The notes under the pieces were generated by a model. The model searched no databases, was not told the DNA's origin, and saw only the letters and a list, made by a program, of their open reading frames with translations. The position numbers and the translations under genes were made by a program. Below, in pieces: positions 26,812 through 27,757 of a stretch of 30,734 bases of DNA (positions are counted from its first letter, which is position 1; the number at the start of each line of letters is the position of its first letter). This stretch comes from a virus (Duplodnaviria; Heunggongvirae; Uroviricota; Caudoviricetes), in IMG/VR virus record IMGVR_UViG_2879765931_000001; one strand, given 5' to 3'.

Positions 26812-27129
26812 GGTGACAGCCCCTATGTTGAATTCAAAGAACTCACCACATGGGACGCCAATCACAGAGGTGGTGAGACGTACAGGGTTGGCGTAACCGG
26901 TCAACATAGAACCCGGCGCATCTTGCGATGTCCCTGCACGCCCCACCATAATTTGGGCGTAGCAATGCTCATGACACGAAAAAACCGCATGAGCGCGGTT
27001 ATGCTCTATATTGAATTTCAGGACGCCAATCCCGGCCCCCGCTTTATAAGGTGCAGAGACAGTGTAACGTCCCGAAATTGCAGAATCAATATATTGTGCA
27101 GATATAACGATTTTGTTATGTTTTGCTGT

Positions 27130-27459
27130 ATGAACTACACTATCGAATACTACAGTGAAGAGGTCCGACTGGAGGTCGATCAGCTTCCATTGAGTATGCG
27201 TGCCAGATACCAGCATCTTGTTGAACGCATGAAGGTATACGGCAGCAATCTCGGAGAACCTCACACCAGCGCCTTTGGTGACGGGCTTTTCGAACTCAGA
27301 ATTAAAGGCAACGATGGGATCGCGCGTGTTTTTTACTGCACTCTGACAGGGAAACGCATCATCATGCTGCATAGTTTTGTAAAGAAAGCGCAGAAAACAC
27401 CGCCAGCCGAACGCAAGAAAGCTGAAACCAGAATGAAGGAGGTTAAGCATGACTGGTAA
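27130..27459 (+). CDS. Type II toxin, RelE/ParE superfamily (phage Gp49 / HigB-like)
   Basis: 109 aa MNYTIEYYSEEVRLEVDQLP...GDGLFELRIKGNDGIARVFYCTLTGKRIIMLHSFVKKAQKTPPAERKKAETRMKEV, the characteristic Gp49/RelE-like pattern; an alternative ATG lies at 27118. Confidence 0.8.
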   Translation: MNYTIEYYSEEVRLEVDQLPLSMRARYQHLVERMKVYGSNLGEPHTSAFGDGLFELRIKGNDGIARVFYCTLTGKRIIMLHSFVKKAQKTPPAERKKAETRMKEVKHDW

Positions 27460-27757
27460 ACGCACTCTCCCCACCATGACACACGACGAAATGGCAGCCA
27501 AATGGATGGAAGACCCGGCTTTTAAAGCAGAATACGACGCTATCGCTGACGAATTCGCACTGCTTGATGAAATGCTGGCAGCACGCAAAGAAGCTGGCTT
27601 AACTCAGGCTGAAGTTGCCGAGCGAATGGGAACAAAAGCGACCGCGATCACCAGAATGGAAAGTAATCTCGCATCAGGTATCAGCGGCCCATCATTTGCC
27701 ACACTAAAAAAATTCGCCCGCGCTACTGGAAAAAAACTCCAGATCCGCTTCGTTTAA
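27449..27757 (+). CDS. HTH-XRE family antitoxin (HigA-like)
   Basis: 102 aa; overlaps the toxin stop by 11 nt; HTH segment GLTQAEVAERMGTKATAITRMES; classic toxin-first HigBA-like arrangement. Confidence 0.8.
   Translation: MTGKRTLPTMTHDEMAAKWMEDPAFKAEYDAIADEFALLDEMLAARKEAGLTQAEVAERMGTKATAITRMESNLASGISGPSFATLKKFARATGKKLQIRFV

Follow-up and report, generated by a model that had tools for sequence, protein, structure and literature searches.

The DNA analysed here (hereafter the window) is the whole 30,734-nucleotide stretch of the IMG/VR virus record IMGVR_UViG_2879765931_000001 (Caudoviricetes), and this report concerns a pair of small plus-strand genes near its right end. The two open reading frames (ORFs), one at 27130-27459 (109 aa) and one at 27449-27757 (102 aa), overlap by 11 nt and are located exactly where the initial annotation had placed them. 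That annotation, made from the letters of the sequence without database searches, had labelled the products a RelE/Gp49-type toxin and an XRE antitoxin. The label was upheld by sequence and structure comparisons, by conserved catalytic residues and by purifying selection. Judged by homology, from which toxicity, neutralisation and RNase activity are assigned, the pair is an intact type II toxin-antitoxin (TA) pair of the HigB(Gp49)/HigA kind, a family that takes in Tad-Ata, gp49-gp48 of N15, HigBA of Streptococcus pneumoniae and the HigB1 toxin of Mycobacterium tuberculosis. We further consider it very probable that the two genes belong to a self-contained TA cassette of ~690 bp (27094-27785), a moron within a decayed, mosaic, ipaH-carrying lambda-like prophage. 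The TA family is known and already labelled as such by annotation pipelines; what is new is an uncharacterised member of it. The following features were located at the cassette:

27087-27096, no strand: palindrome CAATATATTG, outside the cassette except for its last three bases (the TTG of the -35-like hexamer)
27094-27099, plus strand: -35-like hexamer TTGTGC, with whose TTG the conserved cassette begins on the left
27102-27121, no strand: candidate operator, an inverted repeat with the core ATAAC-N6-GTTAT (27104-27119), which fills the promoter spacer and overlaps the -10-like hexamer
27117-27122, plus strand: -10-like hexamer TATGTT, separated by 7 nt from the toxin ATG
27130-27459, plus strand: toxin gene, 109 aa, Gp49/HigB-type with RelE fold
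27436-27443, plus strand: Shine-Dalgarno (SD) sequence AAGGAGGT of the antitoxin gene, embedded in the toxin gene at its 3' end, as read from the sequence
27449-27757, plus strand: antitoxin gene, 102 aa, with ~40 N-terminal residues followed by a C-terminal helix-turn-helix (HTH) domain of the XRE type (residues 44-98)
27765-27785, plus strand: GC-rich hairpin GCGCCGUCA-UUC-UGGCGGCGC, which closes the cassette on the right, 8 nt past the stop codon

The toxin matched the Pfam family Gp49 (PF05973) with an E-value of 3.2e-25 (88.4 bits against a cut-off of 23.9), covering profile positions 2-90 of 90. It is 45% identical to gp49 of N15 (residues 15-105) and to Gp49 of phiKO2. Homologues were found in 2292 clusters (E<=1e-5), and PF05973 was present on all 120 of the matches listed; among these, named homologues were labelled "type II toxin-antitoxin system RelE/ParE family toxin" or "phage-related protein". 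In NCBIfam, all matches stayed below threshold (upstrm_HI1419, 19.8 bits against a cut-off of 62.85; RstR, 26.8 bits against 80), and no equivalog was assigned. A model of the toxin predicted by AlphaFold2 on 54 homologues (pLDDT 91.6, pTM 0.85) has the RelE/HigB fold, in which an N-terminal strand and two helices precede an antiparallel sheet of four strands and a helix at the C-terminus (strands E4-7, E46-50, E53-60, E63-73 and E76-84; helices H10-17, H21-37 and H92-108). When this model was compared with known structures by Foldseek, S. pneumoniae HigB (6AF4/6AF3) came out on top with a TM-score of 0.74-0.77, a match that includes the C-terminal helix, followed by M. tuberculosis HigB1 (7AWK and the ribosome-bound 7NBU) with 0.72-0.76, both at a probability of 1.00. 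YafQ, RelE and YoeB ranked next, and gyrase poisons of the ParE type lower. HigB2 of Vibrio cholerae, which had been expected to be the nearest structure, gave no sequence match at E<=1 and a Foldseek TM-score of only 0.55-0.57. S. pneumoniae HigB (6AF3) was also the best match of the toxin among PDB sequences (E=6.5e-5).

Residues required for catalysis are retained. The HMMER alignment pairs E55, R57, F83 and K85 of the toxin with E66, R68, F90 and K92 of S. pneumoniae HigB, and R66 with R73 only if the register is shifted by 3 residues within an indel. Within the alignment of 54 toxin homologues, E55, R57, K59, R66, H81, F83, K85 and K86 are invariant. In S. pneumoniae HigB, mutation of R73, R68 or F90 weakens the RNase activity (PMC7984235). 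R68, R73, F90 and K92 of that protein have been equated with R68, R77, F93 and K95 of M. tuberculosis HigB1, and the three basic catalytic residues of HigB with K54, R61 and R81 of RelE (PMC9098466). By analogy with these proteins, the toxin is probably a ribosome-dependent mRNA endonuclease.

The antitoxin matched HTH_3 at residues 44-98 (E=3.4e-11), HTH families being its sole Pfam matches, and phrog_1373 with an E-value of 2e-37. Its best PDB match is HigA of 6AF3 (E=1e-3), so that the best sequence matches of toxin and antitoxin are chains A and B of one and the same complex. In S. pneumoniae HigA, which binds palindromes of its own promoter, an N-terminal toxin-binding part is followed by a C-terminal HTH (PMC7984235), and by analogy the ~40 N-terminal residues of the antitoxin would constitute the part that binds the toxin. 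Neither an S24 peptidase domain nor an oligomerisation or dimerisation domain was found by Pfam in the 102 aa. An antitoxin homologue is located 3' of the toxin in 44 of the 50 homologous loci examined. Compared to 35 distinct relatives, the lengths of 109 and 102 aa are unchanged and dN/dS is 0.02-0.17 for the toxin and 0.00-0.18 for the antitoxin, indicative of strong purifying selection. Proteins identical to those of the window recur in at least 37 assembly blocks, and the exact toxin is also encoded on the chromosome CP084879.1. A variant of the cassette (L009, L111-L121 and phage PhiR5_2, PV340546.1) has a strongly diverged N-terminal half of the toxin (72% aa identity); its DNA is homologous to the window only from 27324 on, and its antitoxin is ~95% identical (dN 0.05). 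This pattern suggests either a recombination within the toxin gene or a co-variation confined to the interface of toxin and antitoxin.

Upstream of the toxin gene, close copies of the cassette share the arrangement TTG-N8-ATAAC-N6-GTTATG(T/A)T-N7-ATG. The TTG of the -35-like hexamer, 17 nt from the -10-like hexamer, is invariant in every close copy whatever the left flank (TTGAAT, TTGCGA and TTGCAA in relatives). Likewise, the core of the inverted repeat is invariant in the close copies examined, in at least four flank contexts, and occurs exactly once in the window compared to 0.02 occurrences expected. The arms of the repeat reach 9-12 bp in relatives (L106, L107), up to a perfect palindrome of 24 bp (AAACATAACAAT/ATTGTTATGTTT). 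Homologues of 40-65% identity from Betaproteobacteria, Nitrospira, Acidithiobacillus, Alphaproteobacteria and others carry an inverted repeat in the same place with another sequence (TAACA/TGTTA, TATAGC/GCTATA, ATAGCA/TGCTAT, ATCTC/GAGAT and ATTGCA/TGCAAT). From this comparison we infer that the antitoxin or the TA complex represses at ATAAC-N6-GTTAT, the candidate operator. In 29 of 50 distinct homologue upstream regions, the best -10 element ends 5-7 nt before the start codon (4.1 ± 2.0 in shuffled sequences), the regions being phylogenetically related so that the shuffle statistics overstate their independence. Of 29 homologous loci, 24 have an SD-like core ahead of the antitoxin start, compared to 2 of 50 for the toxin start, and none was found upstream of the toxin start of the window. 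Taken from this spacing and the missing SD only, the toxin mRNA is probably leaderless and starts at or beside the toxin ATG; the toxin cistron would then be weakly translated and that of the antitoxin driven by its SD. ATG 27118, which PGAP uses as toxin start in some relatives, was rejected: it falls into the conserved arm of the inverted repeat and -10 element and is missing in distant homologues that keep the equivalent of the start at 27130. A literature search on TA morons of the lambdoid nin region and on leaderless higBA transcripts returned nothing specific to this cassette.

At the other end, the 49-nt stretch 27752-27800 that holds the stem of the hairpin has a folding energy of -18.4 kcal/mol (z=-3.4). 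The hairpin is kept in relatives with a compensatory change (GCA..TGC in L093), and a different stem occupies its position in L106 and L108 (GCCGCA/TGCGGC vs GCGGCA/TGCCGC). It is a candidate for a terminator-like or 3'-end stabilising element. Homology among copies in different contexts stops at 27785, and homology to the cassette of E. coli FDAARGOS_943 starts at 27102; at least four contexts share the limits 27094/27102 and 27785. With promoter- and operator-like elements, two genes, a hairpin, variable presence and an orientation on the strand opposite to its neighbours, the ~690-bp unit fits a moron.

Besides the relatedness of the upstream regions and the basis of the leaderless start, several observations weigh against this reading. 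The match to the promoter consensus is weak (3/6 at -35 and 4/6 at -10 in the window), and a scan of 26600-28100 for sigma-70 promoter and terminator consensus sequences called nothing at the locus, so that it is the comparative spacing, and not a consensus match, which supports the proposed promoter. The inverted repeat of the window has perfect arms of only 5 bp (7/9 when extended) and is shorter than that of many relatives, so that autoregulation may be weakened here. As the hairpin is not followed by a U-tract, we do not call it an intrinsic terminator. Finally, the locus L122 (IMGVR_UViG_2537561620_000017, 6001-6326) has the same hybrid layout as the window, to which it is 99.7% identical outside a 1-nt deletion that cuts the toxin to 71 aa. 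L122 is a possible instance of toxin inactivation, and since its toxin is frameshifted, the module is able to decay in the lineage of the window.

Around the cassette, the features that bear on its position are:

26248-27105, minus strand: antirepressor-like Ash-Rha pseudogene (Phage_ASH and Phage_pRha domains), divergent from the pair
27799-28382, minus strand: ninE (27799-27975; Pfam NinE, E=4.8e-42) and ninB (27972-28382; Pfam NinB, E=2.5e-56), convergent with the pair
28924-30172, minus strand: IS911, 99.76% identical to annotated IS911, at a deletion joint

The window is a lambda-type prophage adjoining ybhB at the bio-side lambda attachment locus and is colinear with the far more complete prophage of FDAARGOS_943. 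There, in the orientation of the window, ybhB is followed by ipaH, the tail, head, terminase and lysis genes, Q, ninH, rusA, ant and P22AR, then by the 97.4%-identical TA pair, which lies on the opposite strand, by ninE, a methylase gene, ninB, toprim and O-like genes, and finally by cII, cro, cI (LexA family), rexA, rexB and N. In this prophage, the pair is located in the nin region, ~7 kb from a canonical cI-rexAB. The adjacency of ninE and the cassette, at 97.4% identity, is found in both FDAARGOS_943 and RMDEC465. The stretch to the left of the pair has a different source: 20841-27092 is 99.8% identical to another lambdoid type, from E. coli O121, and carries the genes for a holin, four tRNAs, Q and ninH, those for DnaB, a DnaC-like loader and an O-like protein, and a 77-aa ORF and Ash-Rha. 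In the O121 type, this 99.8%-identical Ash-Rha neighbourhood lacks the cassette. At 26758-26760, an in-frame TAG interrupts the Ash-Rha frame in place of the CAG of the 99.8%-identical O121 relative, and the start codon was lost at the mosaic junction. In A34 and TUM9812, the order is cI, cro, KilA-N or ymfL, DUF4222, the TA pair (opposite strand), Ash/Rha and replication genes, an arrangement that represents the natural parent of the Ash-Rha side of the window. A crossover between the two phage types at the left boundary of the cassette they have in common would yield exactly the order ninB-ninE-TA-Ash/Rha-O-DnaC-DnaB. This hybrid ninE-TA-Ash/Rha junction was found in many assemblies; because one of them keeps an untruncated toprim gene upstream, the junction is older than the deletion at IS911.

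In the region 28656-30734, one flank of IS911 is formed by the final ~64 codons of the toprim replication gene (28732-28923), and the other by a lambda-type integrase gene of which the C-terminal half is left (30173-30734). As read from this joint and the order in relatives, an IS911-associated deletion took O, cII, cro, cI, rexAB, N and xis, together with most of the toprim gene and the 5' half of int. In agreement with the initial annotation, which had seen neither cI nor cro, a tblastn search of the window with 19 proteins from seven relatives gave no significant match for cI, cro, cII, rexA or N; the best one (E=0.055) was the HTH of the antitoxin itself. The prophage is eroded elsewhere, too. 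An IS1-like insert in the head region (18002-18765, with 18002-18250 matching IS1A) is accompanied by a truncated gene for capsid protein E. Colinearity with the intact relative ends at 20155 in the S49 protease gene and the O121-type segment begins at 20841; because of this gap, the portal, terminase and most lysis genes are missing. No Pfam match was obtained for the 209-aa ORF at 20273-20902 (minus strand). Four tRNA genes (21414-21724, minus strand) are located between Q and the holin gene, for Gly-tcc, Thr-tgt, Arg-tct and a Met tRNA with a CAT anticodon (Ile in the annotation of relatives), an arrangement like that of Shiga toxin (Stx) phages. At the tail-fibre end beside ybhB, 1060-2823 (plus strand) encodes an ipaH-type effector of type III secretion systems (LRR_TTSS and NEL E3-ligase domains; ipaHa in FDAARGOS_943). 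The ipaH gene and the content of insertion sequences point to Shigella or enteroinvasive E. coli as origin. In the E. coli collection, the best identity per segment of the window was 97-99.8%, and no record was identical.

With 31 carriers among 5426 complete E. coli genomes, all of them chromosomal, the cassette is rare. Genes on either side of it are mainly on the opposite strand in 27 of the 37 distinct flank contexts. All seven annotated relatives in which an immunity region is preserved (L001-L003, L006, L007, L009 and L010) carry the cassette antisense in the early-right/nin region, with separate canonical cI and cro genes 2-7 kb away. In JNEC-KY176, the eighth annotated context, neither cI nor cro is located within the 8-kb flanks shown. 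This strain (L008) has an extra gene for a 'HigA family addiction module antitoxin' directly 3' of the cassette (8675-8980), and in the Stx-phage-type context the opposite-strand accessory genes DUF4145 and DUF805 recur beside it. As far as gene content tells, the stretch behaves as a variable accessory region.

If the pair functions as its homologues do, the toxin would cleave mRNA in the ribosomal A site, and an antitoxin dimer would bind two toxins via its N-terminal part to form a HigB-(HigA)2-HigB complex. This complex would repress the operon at ATAAC-N6-GTTAT, overlapping the -10 element. A toxin transcript that starts at or next to the ATG, leaderless and lacking an SD, would be poorly translated, while the antitoxin would be translated from a strong internal SD, providing the antitoxin excess that a toxin-first operon needs. 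Because the cassette lies antisense to the phage early-right operon, expression in a lysogen is expected from its own promoter. The cassette most likely acts either as an addiction or stabilisation element, as does gp49-gp48 of N15, or as a phage-defence element, and the initial suggestion of an addiction or abortive-infection module is in this respect plausible.

Two proposals of the initial annotation concern regulation by the HTH protein, and they fared differently from its gene labels. It had placed the pair at the immunity region, in the slot divergent from the early-right operon that is taken by cI and rexAB in lambda, with the HTH protein possibly doubling as the prophage repressor. On this reading, the toxin would take the place of rexAB. 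The pair is indeed divergent from Ash-Rha and the replication genes of the window, where cI and cro are missing, and the antitoxin HTH weakly resembles phage repressors (434 cI, RstR) with scores under curated cut-offs. However, the pair is at the same time convergent with ninE-ninB, and because these are themselves early-right genes, the slot is not the immunity region: ninB and ninE occupy the 'upstream' side of the pair, relatives carry the cassette antisense in the early-right/nin region, and the true immunity region of the window was lost at IS911. A 97%-identical cassette follows ninE in FDAARGOS_943, where the intact cI(LexA-family)-rexA-rexB, cro and cII are located 7 kb away, and separate cI/cro genes are also present in RMDEC465, Stx phage POCJ13, 2012C-4502, SCU-104, A34 and TUM9812. 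The protein of 102 aa lacks the S24 and dimerisation domains of a repressor and has no cro partner, and the operator core occurs exactly once in the 30.7 kb, with no arrays of the OL/OR type: a search allowing one mismatch to ATAAC-N6-GTTAT added only two sites, both in coding regions and unclustered. These are located at 20436-20451 (in an ORF of unknown function) and 22147-22162 (in the Q gene), giving three sites with the perfect one compared to 0.44 expected; we considered a wider operator regulon and rejected it, the two sites at 20436 and 22147 probably being due to chance. A repressor function, alone or in addition to that of an antitoxin, is hence extremely unlikely, and the apparent 'immunity-region' position is, as the gene orders indicate, the product of recombination at the left end of the cassette followed by the IS911-associated deletion. 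Only slightly better placed, and still very unlikely, is the proposal that the palindrome CAATATATTG is the autoregulatory operator. A perfect 10-bp palindrome does occupy 27087-27096, 34-43 nt ahead of the ATG, and the TTG at its 3' end is also that of the -35-like element. Such palindromes, however, occur at chance frequency (26 in the window compared to 29.3 ± 5.7 in shuffled sequences). On the minus strand, this one codes for Q-Y-I near the N-terminus of the Ash-Rha frame, and the mosaic breakpoint 27092/27093, at which homology to the 99.8%-identical O121-type prophage stops, falls inside it. Its equivalents are imperfect in A34 (CAATACATTG) and TUM9812 (CAACACATTG), and it is absent from left flanks of the ninE and Stx-phage types although the TA genes there are 92-97% identical. 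Only the final TTG is conserved, and the inverted repeat that lies 8 nt to its 3' side is, by its conservation, the better operator candidate.

Concerning the role of the intact pair, we regard anti-phage abortive infection in place of prophage stabilisation as conceivable but rather unlikely. Several type II toxin-antitoxin systems function in phage defence. In such a scenario, an infecting phage would shut off host transcription, the antitoxin would decay, and the toxin would arrest translation. The cassette is an opposite-strand moron with predicted expression in the lysogen, it lies in a variable accessory stretch together with DUF4145, DUF805 and the extra HigA-family gene, and residues 49-99 of the toxin, from its catalytic half, match the C-terminal part of NsnC (Menshen) in PADLOC (positions 233-283 of 293; E=4.9e-9). 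On the other hand, neither toxin nor antitoxin matched a full PADLOC model. In PADLOC-DB v2, no full-length system match was obtained and the antitoxin gave generic HTH matches only (capH, RmrA); with these and the partial NsnC match, the pair is therefore not classed as a known defence system. Moreover, the module is rare, with its 31 of 5426 genomes, no member of the Gp49 family is shown to defend against phage in the cited literature, and stabilisation is the sole citable tested function of a close phage homologue, gp49-gp48 of N15 (PMC2701414). The state of the prophage could also be taken to mean that the pair is a functionless relic, with ORFs that are intact by chance and neither expressed nor active. 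Insertions of IS911 and IS1, the nonsense mutation in Ash-Rha and the deletion of immunity, portal, terminase and lysis genes mark the element as heavily degraded, and the inverted repeat is shorter than in relatives and the toxin of the sibling locus L122 frameshifted. Against this, both ORFs are full length, at least 37 assembly blocks encode identical proteins and all catalytic residues are kept. A decaying element should lose an antitoxin-dependent module last of all, because loss of the antitoxin is lethal. We therefore judge the relic to be quite improbable.

More speculatively, and in our estimation with little chance of being right, the layout of the cassette could represent a functional switch for toxin release and, separately, the cassette a portable patch of homology between lambdoid phages. 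A leaderless toxin cistron lacking an SD and starting 5-7 nt after the -10 element, an operator over the -10 element, an SD-driven antitoxin and the antisense placement may together constitute such a switch. Upon induction, or when infection alters translation, antiterminated transcription from PR would collide with the cassette promoter and silence it; the labile antitoxin would decay, and the HigB-type toxin would be freed at a set stage of the lytic cycle. In another version, the balance of toxin and antitoxin would change under stress conditions in which leaderless mRNAs are preferentially translated. As for the homology patch, the ninE-TA-Ash/Rha junction of the window is a hint which suggests that lambdoid phages swap whole early-gene modules via the cassette.

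Taken together, the pair is best labelled a toxin-antitoxin moron of the HigBA/Tad-Ata type and not an immunity module, and the missing cI and cro reflect the IS911-mediated decay of an ipaH-carrying prophage; beyond annotation, little is at stake. Two aspects appear mildly novel on the basis of the sequence comparisons, namely the family-wide layout of a leaderless toxin and its operator, and the cassette as a recombination joint between lambdoid modules. The former, a toxin start 5-7 nt past the -10 element lacking an SD followed by an antitoxin with a strong SD, would provide a simple account of antitoxin excess in toxin-first operons. The latter, a cassette at the recombination junction of two lambdoid early-gene modules, suggests that shared morons can serve as crossover points and so contribute to phage mosaicism.

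Among known systems, the best PDB match for both partners is HigBA of S. pneumoniae (6AF3/6AF4), with the catalytic R68, R73, F90 and K92 of HigB corresponding to R57, R66, F83 and K85 of the toxin. The structure-based identity amounts to only ~19%, however, and that system is chromosomal in a Gram-positive host and has four palindromes in its promoter compared to the single inverted repeat of the window cassette. M. tuberculosis HigB1 (Rv1955), a structural match as well, is the toxin of a toxin-antitoxin-chaperone (TAC) system, which needs a SecB-like chaperone as third component; none is encoded adjacent to the window pair, and the codon preference of HigB1 is not transferable to its toxin. 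The likeness to cI-rexAB of lambda is confined to a superficial geometry, a small HTH protein and a companion gene divergent from replication genes, and in contrast to lambda cI the antitoxin comes without an S24 domain, a cro partner and operator arrays. Tad-Ata of the Paracoccus plasmid pAMI2 (COG4679/DUF891) and gp49-gp48 of N15 share PF05973, the family named after N15 gp49, with the pair, the identity with N15 being the 45% given above. This group is described as combining a RelE-related toxin with an Xre-type antitoxin, and gp49-gp48 as acting in stabilisation (PMC2701414). The window pair resembles this group, as described there, in its toxin-first order, its small HTH-Xre antitoxin and its carriage by a temperate phage. 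While post-segregational killing is an obvious role in N15, a linear plasmid prophage, the cassette is found in integrated lambdoid prophages, antisense to the early operon in which it lies. Morons are described as independent transcription units inserted between phage genes (PMC3594210). Allowing for a promoter and terminator that are predicted and for a hairpin that lacks a U-tract, the cassette corresponds to them as a discrete and variably present unit with its own promoter-like region and a 3' hairpin, usually on the opposite strand.

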